A program made the position numbers and the translations under genes. Of a stretch of 64,000 bases of DNA, positions 52,969 through 62,947 are shown in pieces. The notes beneath the pieces are model-generated. The model ran no database searches and was not told where the DNA came from. It saw only the letters and a list, made by a program, of their open reading frames with translations. How positions within the stretch are numbered: the first letter of the stretch is position 1; each line of letters starts with the position of its first letter. The DNA lies in IMG/VR virus record IMGVR_UViG_3300005281_000021, positions 1 to 64,000 of that record; one strand, 5' to 3'. The stretch comes from a virus. Lineage: Duplodnaviria > Caudoviricetes.

Positions 52969-52990
52969 CCCCCCATGATGGGGTCACGAC
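52968..52990 (-). promoter_or_regulatory. late promoter, leaderless
   Basis: GTCGTGA-cccc-ATCAT-gggggg-ATG. Confidence 0.75.
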
Positions 52991-53631
52991 GCCACCGCCA
53001 GATCCTCGATGAGTTTGTTCTTTTTTCGGACGTTTTCAACCCAAGGGATGGCCCGCAGGTTCCATGGAACGTGCAAGCCACAAACCGTCTCGCCCTGAAG
53101 CGGCACGATGTGATCGACGTGATGCAGGATGCCGGTGTCGGCGGTCAGGCGGTCTGCTTCCTCGTACACCTCACGGATGGCAGATCGATCGACCCAAGGA
53201 GGTGTTGCTCGGACAATTTGCTTTTTTCGAGCCGCGTTCAGCTCCCGTATGACATGCCGATTTTTTTCGACCCATTCCTTCCTGCGCTCCTTCAAGCGGT
53301 CGAAATTCGCCACCCAATAGGCTCGCTTCATCTCAGCAAGCCGTTCGGCGTTCTTCGCGTTGTAAGCCCTTACACGCGCCTGTATCTGCTCCCTTTTCAG
53401 GATCCACCGCTGCCGGTCGTACTCCTTCCGGGCAGCGCGTTGCACCGGATCTGCACGGCGCCGATTCTCGCAGAGACGATTGCAGAGGACGCAACGCTTG
53501 TTGTCGGTTCGGCGCTCGTAGATGTGGCCACGCACGCACGGGCGACCGGTGAAGTAATGCCGGAATCCCCTTTCAAGAGCGACGGAGCGCGGAACGAGGT
53601 GGAGCATCAACATGCCGCCGGATTTTGCCAT
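52984..53631 (-). CDS. HNH endonuclease
   Basis: YFTGRPCVRGH, HVDHIVPLQG..VCGLHVPWNL...EN..K.N. Confidence 0.88.
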   Translation of the reverse strand: MAKSGGMLMLHLVPRSVALERGFRHYFTGRPCVRGHIYERRTDNKRCVLCNRLCENRRRADPVQRAARKEYDRQRWILKREQIQARVRAYNAKNAERLAEMKRAYWVANFDRLKERRKEWVEKNRHVIRELNAARKKQIVRATPPWVDRSAIREVYEEADRLTADTGILHHVDHIVPLQGETVCGLHVPWNLRAIPWVENVRKKNKLIEDLAVAS

Positions 53632-54011: not shown

Positions 54012-54693
54012 GCGCAGGCCCGCCCTGACCGTAACGCACCGCCTTGATGAGCACCGGCCCGCTCCCGGCGCCCTTCACCTGCCGGACGAACTCGGCCACC
54101 GGCACCGCTCGGATCGACCCCAGAAACCGCGGGTCGTCGTAGTGCTTCAGGAAGGCCGACCGGGCGTCCTCCTCGCTGGCGAACCCGATCATGGCCTTCT
54201 GCTCGTCGTCCTTGTCCCACTGGCCAGGCACCCGGGTCATGACCACGTAGACGAACGGCGCATCGGCGTCCGGCCCGACGTAGCAGTCGACCGGGTCGCC
54301 ATCCAGCCCCTGGGTGCCGACCAGATAGCCGTAGGGGTACAGCATCCGGATCGACCATTCGTTGCCGTCGCGGTCGCGCCCGGATCGCACCGTGCCCACC
54401 GGGCATTCGATGGCGATTTCCAGCCCCTGCCAGCGCATCCTGGGCTTCTTGTAGTTGCCGGCCTTGGCCTGGGCTTCCGTTGGCGCGCGCCAGCCGGCAG
54501 CCACCGGGTGCGGCCCGGACTTCACGAACAGAATGGGGATAGACTTGCGCATGGGTTCCTTCTTCTCGCCGCGGGCGCGCCCGGCCTTCTTGTAGGCGAT
54601 GGCCACGGCCTGGTCGCGTGGATAGCCGGACAGAATCAGCTCGGCGATGTTGGCCGAGACCACCTCGTCGGAGTCACCATCAAGCAGCGGCAT
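54007..54693 (-). CDS. inorganic-pyrophosphatase-like (InPase) domain protein
   Basis: [56 protein letters not shown]. Confidence 0.75.
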
Positions 54694-55849
54694 CCTTCTT
54701 GCCCTCCAACAGACGGCGCAGCCATTCGCCAAACTCGGCGTCCTCGCCAGGCTCGTCCTGCAGCACCGGCAGCCAGCGCCCCCGGCAGTGCGGGTGAACG
54801 AGCCCGGCGGGCACCCACCAAAGCTCCTCTGGGTCTCGAGGGACAAGGGCGTTGCCTACCCGCTTACGCGGCGCCGACGAGCGCCCGAAGTTGTCCTTCC
54901 CGACCCAAACCTGGGTTTCCGGATCCTTGTCCGGGTTGTCCGGCGAGACCACCTCCATGACCCGCCCGTGGATCCGCTTGCAGAAGCCGCAGGCGGACTT
55001 GTACTGCTCCACCCGCTCGACCTTCGTGCCGGGCGCCAGGCTGGCGATGTAGCCCTGCGTCTGGCACTCGCCGGCCTCGGTCACCGCGATGCGCCGCCAA
55101 TCCCGGTTCATGGTGCCGAAGGTGTCCAGCAGCAGCGACTGAAGGGTCTGGCCGGGCGTTCCCGGGATGCGCAGCATCTGCTGCTCGACGTGCTTCTGGA
55201 TGACGGCGCGCAGCTTCTGCCGGGCGGCAGCCGAGAACGCCGTGACGCGGTCAGCGGCCCGGGTGGCGGCGAAGCTCAGAATGGACTGCTGCAGCGGCGT
55301 GAGCGCGAACTGAGCGACCGCCTGTGTTGGGGTCGTAGGCAGGGCCGCGACGATGCGGTCGGCCTGCTTGTCGGTCAGCTTCTCGATGTTGGCCTGCACC
55401 TTGCCCATGAGGGTCGAGCGCGTCGCCAGCCATTCGGCCTCCGACTTCAGGACGTCGGCGGGCAGGTATCGCTGCACCAGGTAGTCGACCATCATCATGT
55501 AGTCGTCCAGCGTCCACTTGTGCGGCGGCAGGGCCTGCAGGTAGATCTTGACCAGATCCAGCTCCGCCGGCGTCCACCGCTCCATGACGCCAGGCGGCGC
55601 CGGCGGCGGTTTCAGGCCGGGATTGTGCTTGTGGCCGGCCATCCAGGCCTGCAGCTCATGCTGGACGGCCTCGACGCGCGTCAGCCCGCGCTCGGTGAAC
55701 AGCTCGACCAGGCGCCGAACGAACGGGCTGTCCATCGGATCCCAGATCGCGTCGTCGTCGCCGTGATCGTGGATCGCCTTGTAGATTTCGGACAGCGCCC
55801 GGTTCGTCTGCGTTTCGTCCAGATTGATGACGTCGAGGAAAAGGCCCAT
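54680..55849 (-). CDS. MuF-like head morphogenesis protein
   Basis: [19 protein letters not shown]. Confidence 0.78.
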
Positions 55850-55871
55850 TCAGGCAGTGTGTCGTCACGAC
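55849..55871 (-). promoter_or_regulatory. late promoter, leaderless
   Basis: GTCGTGA-cgac-ACACT-gcctga-ATG. Confidence 0.75.
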
Positions 55872-55874
55872 ACA

Positions 55875-56055
55875 CGAGAAGCCCGCCGGTTCCTCGGCGG
55901 GCGGGGGAAGGGTCGCCGTTTCTCGCACGGTATCGGCAAGTCCCGACGCGGGAGGCTCGCCGCAAGGGCTCACGTCTGACTTGCTGCGGGCTGTTTTTCC
56001 CGACAGTCCCGCTGCGGGGCCACGTCCAAGAGACATCCGCTCTGCCCGCTAGGGC
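55875..56055 (-). ncRNA. candidate structured late ncRNA (~180 nt)
   Basis: own late promoter, five stem-loops, terminal 8-bp GC hairpin, no credible ORF. Confidence 0.6.
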
Positions 56056-56077
56056 AGCTCCATTTTTCCGTCACGAC
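56055..56077 (-). promoter_or_regulatory. late promoter of the ncRNA candidate
   Basis: GTCGTGA-cgga-AAAAT-ggagct-G. Confidence 0.7.
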
Positions 56078-56084
56078 GTGCCCG

Positions 56085-56408
56085 TCAGCGTTTGACGACG
56101 ATGCGCTCGGTCGCCATTCCCGGCGCCACGCCGATGAACCGGCGCTTGCCGGTCGCGTCCTCGACCAGCATCCCATCCTCGCCGTGCTCGATGAGCTTCA
56201 GGCGCTGCTCGGCGCGCTTCTTGTGGCCGAGGACGCGCTCCCACTTCACCTTGTGGCGCTTTCCCTTGGCGCACTCGACCGTGCAGCCGTGGCGCCCATG
56301 GGCCAGCACCCGGCCAGACAGCGGGATGCCGGACGGGTGCTCGAAATAAATCTCATCGCCAGGGAACACCCCGTGGCGAGCGTTCGGTTTGCTCTGCTGA
56401 TCCATCAT
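56085..56408 (-). CDS. hypothetical protein coupled to portal
   Basis: ATGA overlap with the portal stop; 107 aa. Confidence 0.65.
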   Translation of the reverse strand: MMDQQSKPNARHGVFPGDEIYFEHPSGIPLSGRVLAHGRHGCTVECAKGKRHKVKWERVLGHKKRAEQRLKLIEHGEDGMLVEDATGKRRFIGVAPGMATERIVVKR

Positions 56409-58174
56409 GGCTCGATTACCAGAACCGGCGGCAGACCGAAGGACTTCTGCACCTCCTCGTCGCCGCCATACTCGACCGGATCGGGGTCGTCCGGGCCGTT
56501 GCCGTCGTCTTGACCGCCGTCACCGCCCTCGTCACCGCCGCCTTGGTCGCCCTCCTGACCTTGGTCGTCCTGACCACCATCCTGGCCGTCGTCGCCCGGC
56601 TGACCGCCGCCCATGGAGTCCGGGTCGCCGTAGTCCTCGCCCTGCTGCTGCTGCATCTGCTGCCAGACCTGGATGTGCGGCGGGTTGAGCGGCGCCTCGC
56701 CCCACGGCACAGGGTCGTAGCCCTGCACGGCCCGGGCTTCGTTGACCGTGAGGATCTGCTTGCGCATCTCCTCCCGCTTGTCCAAGTCCTCCTCGTCCAG
56801 TCCAGCCCAGCGGAACACGTACTTGTCCGAGAACTCGGCGACGATGAAGTCCGTGAACAGGTTCTCGAAGTACGCCAGCAGCGGGCGCAGCCCCTTGTCC
56901 TTCGACTCGGCCAGCTTTTCCTCGGTGTCGCTGCCAGACAGCGCGGACTTCGACGCCGAGAAGCTCTCGAAATTCAGCTCGTCCGGCGCGATGCCGTAGA
57001 TGGCGCAGATCAGGCTGGCCAGGAACGTCATCCACTTCGAGAACATCATCTCGTTGACTTCGACGCCGAAATTCTCGAACGACGCCTTCGACTCCTGATC
57101 CTTGGAGACCAGGAACGGCATGTTCCAGCGATTCTCGATGCCCCGCACCATGGCATTCCAGTACCGGCGGAACGCCGCCAAGTCCTGCTCGGAGTAGTTG
57201 CCGGTCAGGTGCAGGATGCCCTTGGGGATCGAGTTGGAGTCGAAGTATTTCGTGTTGTACGAGAAGGCGTTCAGGAAGCCCGTCACCGTGCGCACGAGCA
57301 GCTCGGTCTCCGACAGGCCGTAGCCGGCAGAGTTGACGTCGGTGCGCGGGTTGCGCGGGACATAAATGAGGTCGTCGTAGGTGTAGGCGGTTCGCACGAC
57401 ACCGTTGACCACCTGCAGGGCGAAAATCTCGTCCTCGCCCTTGTAGCCCTGCTCGGTGCACAGCCGGATCGTGGCGCCGTCGACCGCATACAGGCCGTCC
57501 AGCCCGAGATTCTTGTCCCGCTTCCACTCGGTCTCGATCGGAGCCGAGTCCAGAACCAGCGAGTCCCGAACCAGCTTCGCCATGAAGCTGGAGAAGTCGT
57601 CGCGCTTCAGGCGCATGCGCCGGCGCGGGTTCTTTTCCCAGCCGCAGTGCGAGAAAAAATCCTGCAGCAGTAGGATCGACTGCTTCTCGTCCGGGCCGAT
57701 CTTCTGGTTCCGGTCGCGCAGGCGGATCTCGAAGCCCACGCCGGTGTCGCTTTCGCGCACCCGGCAGAACCGCTGCACCTGCCGGATCCGGGTCAGGACC
57801 AGGCCGGACAGGATCGGAGTCTGGTCGACCATCTGCCGCATCGCGTCAAAGCCCAGCGGGCTGGGCTTCTCGTAGTATTCGCCCAGCATGGCGATGTTGC
57901 GGTCGTCGACCCAGATCGACTGCATCCCAGGATCGCCGCGCTTGGCGGCGTTCGACGGGAACGGGACGAGCTTAGTCCCGACCATCGATTTCTGCATCTC
58001 CTGCTCGGCGAGGTCGTTCCGGATCCACTCGATGACCGGCATGATGTCTTCGCGCGGGATCAGCTCGGACGCCAGGCGCGGCGTGTGCGCCTTCTGCAGC
58101 TCGGCCTGGGCGTCGAAACGCTCCGACGCGGGCGCCTCGGGATTGAACGCGATGGAAGTGGCTTTGTCGCTCAT
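56405..58174 (-). CDS. portal protein
   Basis: YAVDGATIR, RNPRTD...YGLSETE, YFDSNSIPKGIL, SKDKGLRPLL, LTVNEAR. Confidence 0.9.
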   Translation of the reverse strand: MSDKATSIAFNPEAPASERFDAQAELQKAHTPRLASELIPREDIMPVIEWIRNDLAEQEMQKSMVGTKLVPFPSNAAKRGDPGMQSIWVDDRNIAMLGEYYEKPSPLGFDAMRQMVDQTPILSGLVLTRIRQVQRFCRVRESDTGVGFEIRLRDRNQKIGPDEKQSILLLQDFFSHCGWEKNPRRRMRLKRDDFSSFMAKLVRDSLVLDSAPIETEWKRDKNLGLDGLYAVDGATIRLCTEQGYKGEDEIFALQVVNGVVRTAYTYDDLIYVPRNPRTDVNSAGYGLSETELLVRTVTGFLNAFSYNTKYFDSNSIPKGILHLTGNYSEQDLAAFRRYWNAMVRGIENRWNMPFLVSKDQESKASFENFGVEVNEMMFSKWMTFLASLICAIYGIAPDELNFESFSASKSALSGSDTEEKLAESKDKGLRPLLAYFENLFTDFIVAEFSDKYVFRWAGLDEEDLDKREEMRKQILTVNEARAVQGYDPVPWGEAPLNPPHIQVWQQMQQQQGEDYGDPDSMGGGQPGDDGQDGGQDDQGQEGDQGGGDEGGDGGQDDGNGPDDPDPVEYGGDEEVQKSFGLPPVLVIEP

Positions 58175-59035: not shown

Positions 59036-59205
59036 AGCTGAAACGCTGCCCGCGTTGCCAGGAAACCATGGCGGCAGACCTGACCAACTTCGCTCCCAGG
59101 GACAAGCGCGGGCGACTGGACGGCTGGTGCCGGATCTGCCGCAGCGAGGATCAGATCGCCCGATATCACCGACGCAAGCAGCTCACGACACCGGCACAAA
59201 CATGA
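59032..59205 (+). CDS. small zinc-finger protein
   Basis: GGAGG RBS; CPRC...WCRIC. Confidence 0.55.
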   Translation: MKLKRCPRCQETMAADLTNFAPRDKRGRLDGWCRICRSEDQIARYHRRKQLTTPAQT

Positions 59206-61792
59206 CGCAGCCGGGGTCACGTGGCCGCACGACCATGTGGCGCTCGGCGCAGGTTTTCGTCTCCTCGTTGAACGCCAGGCAGCGCCCGCACACCTCCCCG
59301 GCGGGCAGATCCTCGACCATCTGCAGCACCGGCTCAGGCAGGCCCGGCATGACATCGCTGACCGCCGCCCGCCGGGCGCTGACCTCGTCCTCGATCGGCA
59401 TGACGAACATGGACGTGCCGTGGGCGCGCGCCCAGGCGACGTCGCAGAGCATGTTCGCATAGCTGGTGTGCGGGTCGATGCCGACCTTCACCACCCGGCG
59501 CCGGTACTTCTTCTCTTCCTCGTCCTTCTCGGCAACCAGCGCGGTCTTCGTGAAGTGCAGGAACGCCAGATCCTTGCAGACCGAAACGGTCTTCCGGACG
59601 CCCTTCTCGAACACCTCCTGCACGAGCGCCGCAGGATCCGGAAACAGGCACAGGCGCTTGACGAACCGCGCCATGGACACCTGCATGCACTTGTACTGGT
59701 CGAGGGTGACCGTGTACCGGTCGCGCTCTTCTTCCGACGTGCGGCGCTCCGAGACGTCCAGCTTCGGCGCGTCGCCCCAGCGCAGCATCTCGTCCTTGAT
59801 GTCCGCGTAATTCGCCAGGAACACCCGGCCCTGGTGGCGCTGCGCGAAGCGCTTCGCGTCGTTGTAGTTGGGCAAGGTTTCCACGACGCAGCACTGCACG
59901 CCGTACTGCTCCATCAGCTCCGAGCACCTGGCGAACGGGTCGGCGTCGTAGATGTACTCCAGGTGCACCACCGCCTGGCGTCCGTCCGGCAGCCGCTCCT
60001 TGATAATGGCCACGTTGAAGTTGCCCATCTGGTCGATGCCCATGAACGTGCCGCGGGCGCGCTGCTTCCACACCAGCCCCGCCTCCATCCCGAGCCGGGC
60101 GCAGTCGTTCAGGATTTCCAGGGTCACCGGCACCTGGGACGGGTCGGTGTACGGCTTGCCGAGCTTGCGGTTATAGAAGTTTTTGAGGTCGTCGGCGGAG
60201 TTGTAGGCCTCGATGATCTCCCGCGGCGTGATCGTCGGCGACAGGAACTGAGGGTAGTGCAGCGAGACGATCTCCGCGTCCGGGTTCTTCGGGATCCACT
60301 CGCCGTCCTGCGGGTCGTCGATCCAGCCGCCGCAGTGCTTGCAGACGTACCGGTAGTCGCCTAGCACGGTCGCCGTGGTGCCGTCGGCGCGCCGGATCTC
60401 CCGCGGATATTCCGGGTCGAAGCGGATGCAGTCGGGGAAATACTCGTCCAGGACATTCCCCTGCCCGCACGACGGGCAGCGGGTGTGGAACTGGTGCTGG
60501 GTGCCGCGCTTGTACCAGAAATTGATGTCCTCGTCCGGCCAGTTGGCAGTCGACCCCATGAGGGTGAACCGGACGTCAGACGCGGACAGGCGCTCGCGGG
60601 TCTTTTCCATTTCTGCGATGGACATTTCCTGCACCTCGTCGAACGAGAGCACGTCCATCGGAAACGACTCGGTCATGGCCTTGCCGGACGTCCACAGAAA
60701 GTGGAACCGGCTGCCGCCCATGTTCCGGATGAGGATGTTGCCCTCCCCGGTACGGCGCCGACCACCGGCGTCGTCGGCCACCATGCGCTCGTAGGCAGCC
60801 GGTACCGTCCGCACGATCGGCATGAACCGCTCGGACGACTTGGCGCCGGCCAGCTTCATATCCGGCAAGTACATCCCGATCTTGCACGGCTCGAACTTCA
60901 GCGCGAGATAGATCGCCGCCAGCATTTCCATGACGGTGAAGCCGACCTGCGCGCACTTCTGCATCACCACCGTGCGCCCGTAGGCCTCCTTCTTCGTCGA
61001 CGGGATCTGCTCGTAGACGAAGCGCATGCTCGGGCGGTTGGACAGGGTGAACGGCTTGCCGTCCACCTTCAGGCCGGTCGACTCGAGCCGCTCGCACCAC
61101 TGGATGAAGGTCTCGTCCTCGCCGATCACGCGCTGCGACGACGACAGCTCCACGTGGTGGTCGAGGAACTCCGCCAGCACGCGCTGCTGGTACGACAGCT
61201 CGTCGAGATTCTCGGCCTCATCCCGGAACGACGCCGGCAGGTGCGGGTTGCAGAACGAGTCGAACTGCCAGACGGACCAGTCCGGATCCGTCTGCCCGGT
61301 CTTGAACAGCTTGTAAAACCCGTTGCGCTTGCCACGCGGAGTCGACAGCAGCCATGCGTCGCCCTTGTAGACCTTCAGCGACGGGCGCAGCACGTCCTCC
61401 CACAGATCCGCCAGGCGGTCGGCCCGGGCGGCGTCGTCGACCACGATCGTGCCGTACTGCTCGTAGCACTCCGAGAAGTCGTCCAGGGCATAGAAGTCGA
61501 TCAGGCCGGACGCCAGCTCGACTCGCTTCGCGTTCACCCGGCGCTTGATGGCCGGCTCGACCAGCCGCAGGATCCGGCGCCGATCCTCGATCAGGTCGGA
61601 CGTGGTCGCCGAGAACCACGCCACCGGATAGCCGCGCAGCGCCCCCTGCCGGCCAGCCAGCAGCACCTCGATGCCCAGCGTGGTCTTGCCGGCCTTCTCG
61701 CCCATGGCGACGACGTTAAACCGGCTGGCGCGGCTCAGGGTCTTCTGTTGAGCGGGATGCGGGTCAGGAAGGATGACTTTGATCTCGGCCAT
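59183..61792 (-). CDS. terL: terminase large subunit (GpA-like) with an extra N-terminal ATPase-like domain
   Basis: KCAQVGFT, LSFDE, CPSC/CKHC, MGIDQ nuclease; N-terminal AGKT/VVDD/STPRG domain. Confidence 0.88.
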   Translation of the reverse strand: MAEIKVILPDPHPAQQKTLSRASRFNVVAMGEKAGKTTLGIEVLLAGRQGALRGYPVAWFSATTSDLIEDRRRILRLVEPAIKRRVNAKRVELASGLIDFYALDDFSECYEQYGTIVVDDAARADRLADLWEDVLRPSLKVYKGDAWLLSTPRGKRNGFYKLFKTGQTDPDWSVWQFDSFCNPHLPASFRDEAENLDELSYQQRVLAEFLDHHVELSSSQRVIGEDETFIQWCERLESTGLKVDGKPFTLSNRPSMRFVYEQIPSTKKEAYGRTVVMQKCAQVGFTVMEMLAAIYLALKFEPCKIGMYLPDMKLAGAKSSERFMPIVRTVPAAYERMVADDAGGRRRTGEGNILIRNMGGSRFHFLWTSGKAMTESFPMDVLSFDEVQEMSIAEMEKTRERLSASDVRFTLMGSTANWPDEDINFWYKRGTQHQFHTRCPSCGQGNVLDEYFPDCIRFDPEYPREIRRADGTTATVLGDYRYVCKHCGGWIDDPQDGEWIPKNPDAEIVSLHYPQFLSPTITPREIIEAYNSADDLKNFYNRKLGKPYTDPSQVPVTLEILNDCARLGMEAGLVWKQRARGTFMGIDQMGNFNVAIIKERLPDGRQAVVHLEYIYDADPFARCSELMEQYGVQCCVVETLPNYNDAKRFAQRHQGRVFLANYADIKDEMLRWGDAPKLDVSERRTSEEERDRYTVTLDQYKCMQVSMARFVKRLCLFPDPAALVQEVFEKGVRKTVSVCKDLAFLHFTKTALVAEKDEEEKKYRRRVVKVGIDPHTSYANMLCDVAWARAHGTSMFVMPIEDEVSARRAAVSDVMPGLPEPVLQMVEDLPAGEVCGRCLAFNEETKTCAERHMVVRPRDPGCVMFVPVS

Positions 61793-62924: not shown

Positions 62925-62947
62925 TCCAGGAAGTCTCGCATCACGAC
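62925..62947 (-). promoter_or_regulatory. late promoter
   Basis: GTCGTGA-tgcg-AGACT-tcctgg-A. Confidence 0.7.

Follow-up and report, generated by a model that had tools for sequence, protein, structure and literature searches.

The stretch of viral DNA analysed here (the window; 64,000 nucleotides, part of an 82,782-base circular phage record) carries on its minus strand, between a portal gene and a minor head gene, what is almost certainly a genuine gene for a structured RNA whose family is uncatalogued; it is about 175 nt long and present in a single copy in this phage genome. A discrete structured non-coding RNA of 175–180 nt with its own late-type promoter had been proposed for this position in a sequence-only reading, and homologues and their covariation now bear this out. 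With regard to function, we tentatively favor a stand-alone late RNA acting in trans, which would display an anti-Shine-Dalgarno CUCC loop on a compact scaffold; the main rival to that mechanism, a protein decoy, is a more doubtful proposition. The features concerned are the following, with positions counted in the window:

55881..56055, minus strand: non-coding RNA gene of about 175 nt (match to model R1, covariation across 26 homologues)
56062..56077, minus strand: late-type promoter, GTCGTGAC box at 56077-56070 and -10-like hexamer at 56067-56062, predicted +1 at 56055
56022..56055, minus strand: variable 5′ region with small hairpins at 56055-56044 and 56036-56022, conserved neither in sequence nor in length
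56015..56018, minus strand: CCCG, 5′ strand of the pseudoknot, predicted partner in the loop at 56002-55999 (CGGG)
55986..56012, minus strand: helix A (56012-56008 with 55990-55986), short helix and A-rich pseudoknot loop (56002-55995)
55936..55985, minus strand: junction A55985, helix B (55984-55978 with 55942-55936), inner helix and variable insert
55977 and 55944-55943, minus strand: 1x2 A/GG internal loop inside the helix B region
55951..55955, minus strand: single-stranded CCUCC loop, its CUCC complementary to GGAG
55916..55935, minus strand: conserved CG (55935-55934) and optional hairpin (55930-55916)
55881..55902, minus strand: terminal GC-rich hairpin with a GNRA-type loop and without a U tail
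56085..58174, minus strand: upstream portal gene (58174-56405), PHROG portal matches
56085..56408, minus strand: conserved 107-aa gene (56408-56085), homologues in most related loci
54680..55871, minus strand: leaderless minor-head (MuF-like) gene (55849-54680) with a separate promoter (55871-55864)

In most relatives, too, the portal is followed by the 107-aa protein, which frequently bears long fused extensions and matches nothing in Pfam or PHROG. Relatives of the 389-aa gene downstream of the RNA are annotated as minor head or particle-associated proteins, and the MuF name is taken from these annotations; the gene belongs to no Pfam or PHROG family, and a PDB search with its alignment returned nothing meaningful. 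Cultured relatives at 40–60% identity are Bordetella PHB04, Pseudomonas Dolphis, Jeremy, Touem01, Aeromonas ST4, Yersinia fHe-Yen8-01, ECML-606-1, phiT5282EW, and Morganella Mecenats66. The terminase (869 aa; 59183-61792, minus strand) matches one terminase family in its N-terminal 210 aa and a gpA-type terminase thereafter, and an endonuclease VII/HNH-like gene of lower GC content (52984-53631, minus strand) is inserted in the head module. Outside the window, the phage encodes a Ro60/TROVE protein with a vWA domain (G000:C1, 69408-70859, minus strand; L573:180-1631); a partnership of the RNA with this protein was considered and rejected, as Ro60 was found in none of 10 relatives (0/10 genomes, in searches run without a positive control). 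The constant linkage to Ro60 that a Y RNA would show is likewise lacking, no such gene having turned up in eight other carriers.

The promoter copy which had been noticed upstream of the RNA, with G56055 as +1, holds up; the GTCGTGAC box is followed by a -10-like hexamer. The genome contains 13 copies of the pattern GTCGTGAY-NNN-A-NNN-T, where Markov simulations predict 0.17, always on the minus strand and ahead of structural genes; it is because of the genes they precede that these promoters are called late. At nine of the 13, an ATG falls on the predicted +1 or the next base (14 or 15 bases past the box), as it does in 154 of 238 distinct promoter copies from related loci, and on account of this position the messages are likely leaderless. 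The common box-to-+1 spacing then puts the +1 of the copy at 56077 on G56055, without a start codon. On the minus strand of the window the promoters span 22926-61814, and in the whole record they reach up to 69067, nine being apparently leaderless; for those at 62947, 27690 and 22926, no ATG coincides with +1. Among the promoter-bearing homologues of the RNA, 25 of 26 keep the GTCGTGAY/-10 promoter, whose motif can be taken as established by comparison of the sequences. The RNA would thus probably be transcribed, and presumably late, from a promoter of its own; its 3′ end was placed at the last hairpin, and an extension to about 55875 is possible. Contigs from two runs labelled metatranscriptomic, though probably derived from DNA, did not cover the RNA, which speaks neither for nor against its expression.

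That the RNA is instead a cis-acting leader or attenuator of the minor-head gene is highly unlikely. Most copies do end just before the minor-head promoter, and read-through is possible because the copy in the window has no terminator (the weak U tail claimed for the final hairpin is not of the intrinsic-terminator kind, and no minus-strand terminator was called). However, the minor-head gene has its own promoter just after the RNA, with the box at 55871-55864, and a leaderless start, so that the sequence-only reading was right on both the promoter and the improbability of a leader; moreover, five of the 25 copies in this slot lie 500–800 nt from the next gene, and two further copies precede other genes.

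Related loci were collected by searches with the minor-head protein (11 loci, then the best 80 of 312), the portal protein (the best 80 of 85), and DNA patterns; the pattern scans, three of them with at least 120 matches, returned mostly chance matches, and the last one no new member. A covariance model built from 11 members gave 29 matches at E 0.0055 or better in 100 sources, seeds included. After removal of the near-duplicates L351 and L551, 27 members were parsed, and a 28th homologue (61.7 bits) was contributed by a sample of 150 scored Caballeronia-family genomes. Model R1 scores the window copy, which was in its seed, at 110.8 bits; matches of 9–26 bits, weak and within coding regions, were rejected, as was one of 30.4 bits inside a long ORF. 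The 28 distinct homologues have a median core identity of 50% and form 23 clusters at 80% and 18 at 70% identity, the nearest relative of the window copy being 67% identical. In a MAFFT alignment of 26 sequences (the truncated L080 was left out), which had not been fitted to the structure, 91.6% of the pairing cells are filled by pairs versus 72.2% in shuffles, and 10 of 16 pairs have changed on both sides; the covariation score is 0.50 versus 0.15 for shuffled alignments, with 0 of 500 shuffles as high in a control that ignores the relatedness of the sequences, and slid controls give 0.05–0.14. RNAalifold recovers the same helices unaided. The comparison of homologues suggested as a check has turned out in favor of the RNA, its helices being kept by compensatory changes.

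Chance folding of GC-rich DNA, or the beginning of a 126-aa ORF that starts at 56036, is exceedingly improbable as an explanation and already largely refuted. The fold of the window copy taken by itself would be compatible with chance (z = -0.68; 51 of 200 shuffles fold as well), and single-sequence z-scores range from -3.0 to +0.7 over 12 members; because the window fold is unremarkable, the structure rests on the homologues, and there the strong covariation argues otherwise. Core lengths occur in all three frames (6, 13 and 8 of 27), in 8 of 26 members no ORF of 25 codons begins within the first 60 nt, and the 126-aa ORF has no family match and is not conserved across members, which decides for an RNA, as originally proposed, and establishes its non-coding status by comparison. 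The scan against Rfam, also proposed as a check, gave no match at the gathering score and nothing beyond weak chance E-values; five further loci did not match Rfam either, a blastn search of phages and plasmids with the RNA sequence returned nothing relevant, and ARAGORN called no tRNA or tmRNA in the window. The literature searched holds no published account of the family that we could find; the alignments of the viral RNA catalogue of Fremin 2023 (PMC10690425) may list the RNA, and the four supplement files compared from that source contain no match to it.

The helices listed in the sequence-only reading can all be drawn in the window, but the GCGG/CCGC part of the second one is not conserved, its 3′ strand being used instead by a covarying pseudoknot. 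From 5′ to 3′, the core consists of a CC(G) strand, a linker of 2–3 nt, helix A, a short helix, a loop, the 3′ strand of helix A, and one A, followed by the 7-bp helix B, the 1x2 A/GG loop, an insert of hairpins very variable in length, the 3′ strand of helix B, and CG. Both helices, which would stack on each other, are established by sequence comparison: in the helix A region four pairs are maintained in 27 of 27 members, two of them with compensatory changes, while in helix B pairs 1–4 are intact in 26 of 26, six of the seven pairs have changed on both sides, and columns show four or five pair types. The CC(G) strand and the loop, which starts with CGG or GGG and ends in As, are predicted to form an H-type pseudoknot. 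Its first pair, which the same comparison establishes, is G-C in 17, C-G in 8 and U-G in 2 of the 27 if the register is chosen for each sequence, which flatters the count; in fixed columns it is G-C in 13, C-G in 8 and unpaired in 5, that is, paired in 21 of 26. Behind pseudoknot stems of only 3 bp, GA dinucleotides frequently face each other and might form tandem G-A pairs, and no clear relation of stem length to loop length was found (rho 0.29, p = 0.14). CG follows helix B in 25 of 26 members, the optional hairpin is present in 16 of 27, with compensatory changes, and GNRA is contained in the loop of the terminal hairpin in 19 of 27; the tertiary fold of the whole is a prediction.

The loop pairings put forward earlier fared less well. 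UCUUG can pair with CGAGA in the window, and similar pairings of 5–6 bp are seen in about five relatives, but there is no family-wide support (cognate 138 versus a permuted mean of 147, p = 0.87; 16 members); UUCCC, the supposed downstream partner of the GGGAA loop, is present in 2 of 27 members only, and that loop is the pseudoknot loop. Pairing of the optional-hairpin loop gave p = 0.87 with the 5′ region and, with the insert, p = 0.22 by permutation, though 1/200 by target shuffling; it may be limited to about six members including the window. Two further candidates were dropped: pairing of CUCC with the terminal loop, because the latter varies as GNRA, and a group I P3-like pairing which, judged by eye, is not maintained across members.

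A ligand-binding or catalytic RNA, with pseudoknot and junction forming a pocket (riboswitch-like or related to group I P4-P6), is quite unlikely. An H-type pseudoknot with an A-rich loop would suit it, as would the succession of helix A, A, helix B and CG, which resembles what we take to be the P4/P6 junction of the T4 nrdB and td introns: here as there, two helices with G-C/C-G end pairs are joined by one A, a short conserved strand follows the second helix, and the last hairpin is GNRA-capped. The likeness is a visual one, and the Rfam gathering scan is insensitive here, as it misses even the T4 introns; models R1 and R2 give no match to them. Unlike group I introns, the RNA has neither exons nor P8 nor the guanosine-site helix P7 (the hairpin found in that place is missing in 11 of 27 members, its sequence unlike T4 P7), the strand preceding helix A pairs with the loop of that helix and not in P3, and the RNA lies between genes, with its own promoter, instead of interrupting one. 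With no catalytic domain and an upstream strand of different topology, it shares with these introns at most a common or convergent module. An expression platform and a constant downstream gene are lacking as well. The sister RNA described below has a similar group I-like junction.

In a non-redundant set of 76 portal-to-minor-head intervals, 19 have this RNA, 27 a sister RNA, one has both and 31 have neither, although a truncated copy that scores weakly is present in L082, counted with the last. The RNA was not found in 10 complete relatives whose head genes are homologous (best E 0.03–0.07); as far as the sequences compared go, its distribution is accessory. Presence clusters on the protein tree, about six changes being needed on a quick tree. 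The exclusivity of the two RNAs (Fisher p = 0.0017) is confounded by clades and, because presence follows these, is not independent evidence. Between portal and minor head gene lie 25 of the 27 parsed copies. Two copies, both without a promoter box, are outside the phage group, one just before a gp3-type (small-terminase-like) DNA-packaging gene of another phage, one in a bacterial genome beside a broken phage integrase among insertion sequences. On this bacterial island, L613 (G075:C28:1-20000), the RNA is a variant surrounded by IS66, an integrase-core transposase, the broken integrase, and the reverse transcriptase of a group II intron. Nine of the 23 member loci scanned contain tRNA or tmRNA genes; in relatives, the slot is also occupied by tRNA-Met and by tmRNA genes of the permuted type (L121:312-704, L499:5179-5579, L506:4374-4758).

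The sister RNA is a structured family with covarying pseudoknots and no Rfam match, found in the cultured phages Dolphis, Jeremy, Touem01, ST4, fHe-Yen8-01, ECML-606-1, and phiT5282EW. As exemplified by Pseudomonas phage Dolphis, Aeromonas ST4, and Yersinia fHe-Yen8-01, it has the slot and the promoter type in common with the RNA described here, as well as CGCAG and a later YCG, but differs in helix order and pseudoknots, and models R1 and R2 do not match it. In L078, L084, and L086 it precedes the portal gene. L097:7381-7517 and L544, the latter upstream of the minor head gene, have other short structured stretches between two promoter copies which belong to neither family.

Sister RNA loci: L013:3270-3470, L015, L016, L017, L018, L001, L485, L490, L492 and others

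A packaging or virion-assembly RNA oligomerising on the portal, as the sequence-only reading had suspected by analogy to the phi29 pRNA, is very unlikely and finds no support in this distribution. The late promoter would fit, as would the position of nearly all copies beside the portal, with one more in front of the gp3 gene, and the sister RNA which fills the slot in other phages, only once together with the first; yet 31 of the 76 intervals do without either RNA, the 10 complete relatives gave no match, and the mutual exclusion follows clades. pRNA is described in PMC5066667 as essential, confined to phi29-like phages, and self-associating via two complementary loops. The RNA described here is similar to it in length, phage-encoded, and multi-helical, but is not essential across relatives, nor present in all phages with the motor, and has no interlocking pair of the CE and D loop type: no two free complementary loops are conserved, and the loop that covaries pairs with the strand just upstream. 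Nor is this phage phi29-like with a gp16-type ATPase, as its 869-aa terminase has a gpA ATPase domain and its clade packages by headful; for Mecenats66, the terminase of which groups with those of Dolphis and PHB04, that mechanism is verified according to PMC9503643. Near the copy on the bacterial mobile island, no packaging gene was found among 15 ORFs scanned. A phi29-type pRNA is unlikely, because most related phages lack the RNA, and an accessory, mobile RNA fits action on a host component better than a part of the motor.

GGAG is the core of the Shine-Dalgarno sequence and the complement of CUCC. CUCC occurs in 23 of 27 otherwise variable inserts versus 5.4 expected from shuffles, so that its conservation is established by comparison; it is the 4-mer most widely shared among them, the next best reaching 16, and in 22 of 26 scored seeds its predicted probability of being unpaired exceeds 0.6. 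GUCUCC is found in 10 of the 27 members and UCUCC in 16; three of the four members without CUCC have UUCC, one neither. No intramolecular partner is common to the family, and in the window CUCC has no complement outside the insert. The own promoter, the variable distance to the next gene, and the two unrelated contexts argue for action in trans on a host component. Transcribed late, the RNA may use its predicted pseudoknotted core as a stable scaffold presenting the single-stranded loop, which would pair with GGAG Shine-Dalgarno sites of other mRNAs and thereby dampen translation of host or early phage messages.

A comparable seed is known from the host group, Betaproteobacteria: the RF02278 toxic sRNAs (bdhR1, ncS03/05/27/62) and Bordetella S17S have, like the phage RNA, an unpaired CU-rich seed (GUCUCC/CUCC) complementary to ribosome-binding sites. 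In the genome of Caballeronia pedi, which has a member of the phage RNA family, four small RNAs also score above the RF02278 cut-off; their seed is GUCUCC, lengthened to about 10 nt and duplicated. RF02278-type seeds are described as reverse complements of ribosome-binding sites (PMC5688073), a model repeated in PMC7011215, and for the related S17S repression is shown, with compensatory rescue (PMC11722255). However, the host RNAs are chromosomal double hairpins of 57–92 nt with a longer, duplicated seed and a U-tailed terminator, whereas the phage RNA is 175 nt long, pseudoknotted, differently folded, and equipped with one short seed in an internal loop; it does not match the RF02278 Rfam model at gathering or at E up to 10. 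Anti-hemB (RF02837) and MmgR-SuhB also have a C/U-rich anti-Shine-Dalgarno loop, but are separate genes without a match to the phage RNA core in sequence or structure. An anti-hemB small RNA (Rfam 54.7 bits) has been captured in the slot of related phages, and an anti-hemB-like seed is present upstream of 5 of 26 other members; phage copies of anti-hemB lie directly upstream of the RNA's promoter at L236:168-256 and also in L501, L507, and L506.

Several observations speak against an anti-Shine-Dalgarno action. The invariant seed comprises 4–5 nt versus about 10, duplicated, in RF02278, and four members lack CUCC; the copy in the window is without a U tail such as Hfq-dependent RNAs use; late genes do not avoid GGAG (15 of 44 versus 16 of 41 other genes, counted from rough heuristic gene starts that favor Shine-Dalgarno sites); conservation is strongest in the folded core, for which a simple antisense RNA would have no use, and the sister family has no fixed CUCC loop. 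CUCC could also make a tertiary or protein contact, which counting of pairs does not see.

The last point leads to the protein decoy or aptamer, the main, if doubtful, alternative, in which the compact core binds a host protein and neutralises it, CUCC contributing to the surface of contact; conceivable targets are translation factors, RNA chaperones, and nucleases of defence systems. The anti-defence role suggested in the sequence-only reading may stand as a rival as well. The invariant junction nucleotides, the A/GG loop, and the GNRA-type loop suggest a defined three-dimensional surface, patchy presence is typical of accessory counter-defence genes, and some relatives carry tRNA and tmRNA genes in the slot. 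On the other hand, it would be a coincidence under this reading that CUCC agrees with a seed known from host small RNAs, and eight other carriers of the RNA yielded no counterpart of the Ro60/TROVE gene of this phage.

An extension of the anti-Shine-Dalgarno reading to a late translation switch, in which a nuclease-resistant RNA broadly occludes Shine-Dalgarno sites and the promoter-proximal late genes, being leaderless, are immune, is unlikely. The genes behind nine of the 13 promoters, among them those for terminase, portal, minor head, and protease, would share this immunity.

The analysis defines a compact family of phage RNAs with strong covariation and no entry in Rfam, for which promoter, ends, and structure model are precise enough for direct testing, and the slot between portal and minor head gene of PHB04/Dolphis-like phages emerges as an exchangeable cassette of RNA genes. 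Should the core bind a protein or ligand, it would represent a new RNA fold; should CUCC target ribosome-binding sites, leaderless late transcription would be tied to RNA-based translational control of the host, and the translation switch, if true, would amount to a new RNA-based strategy of host takeover.
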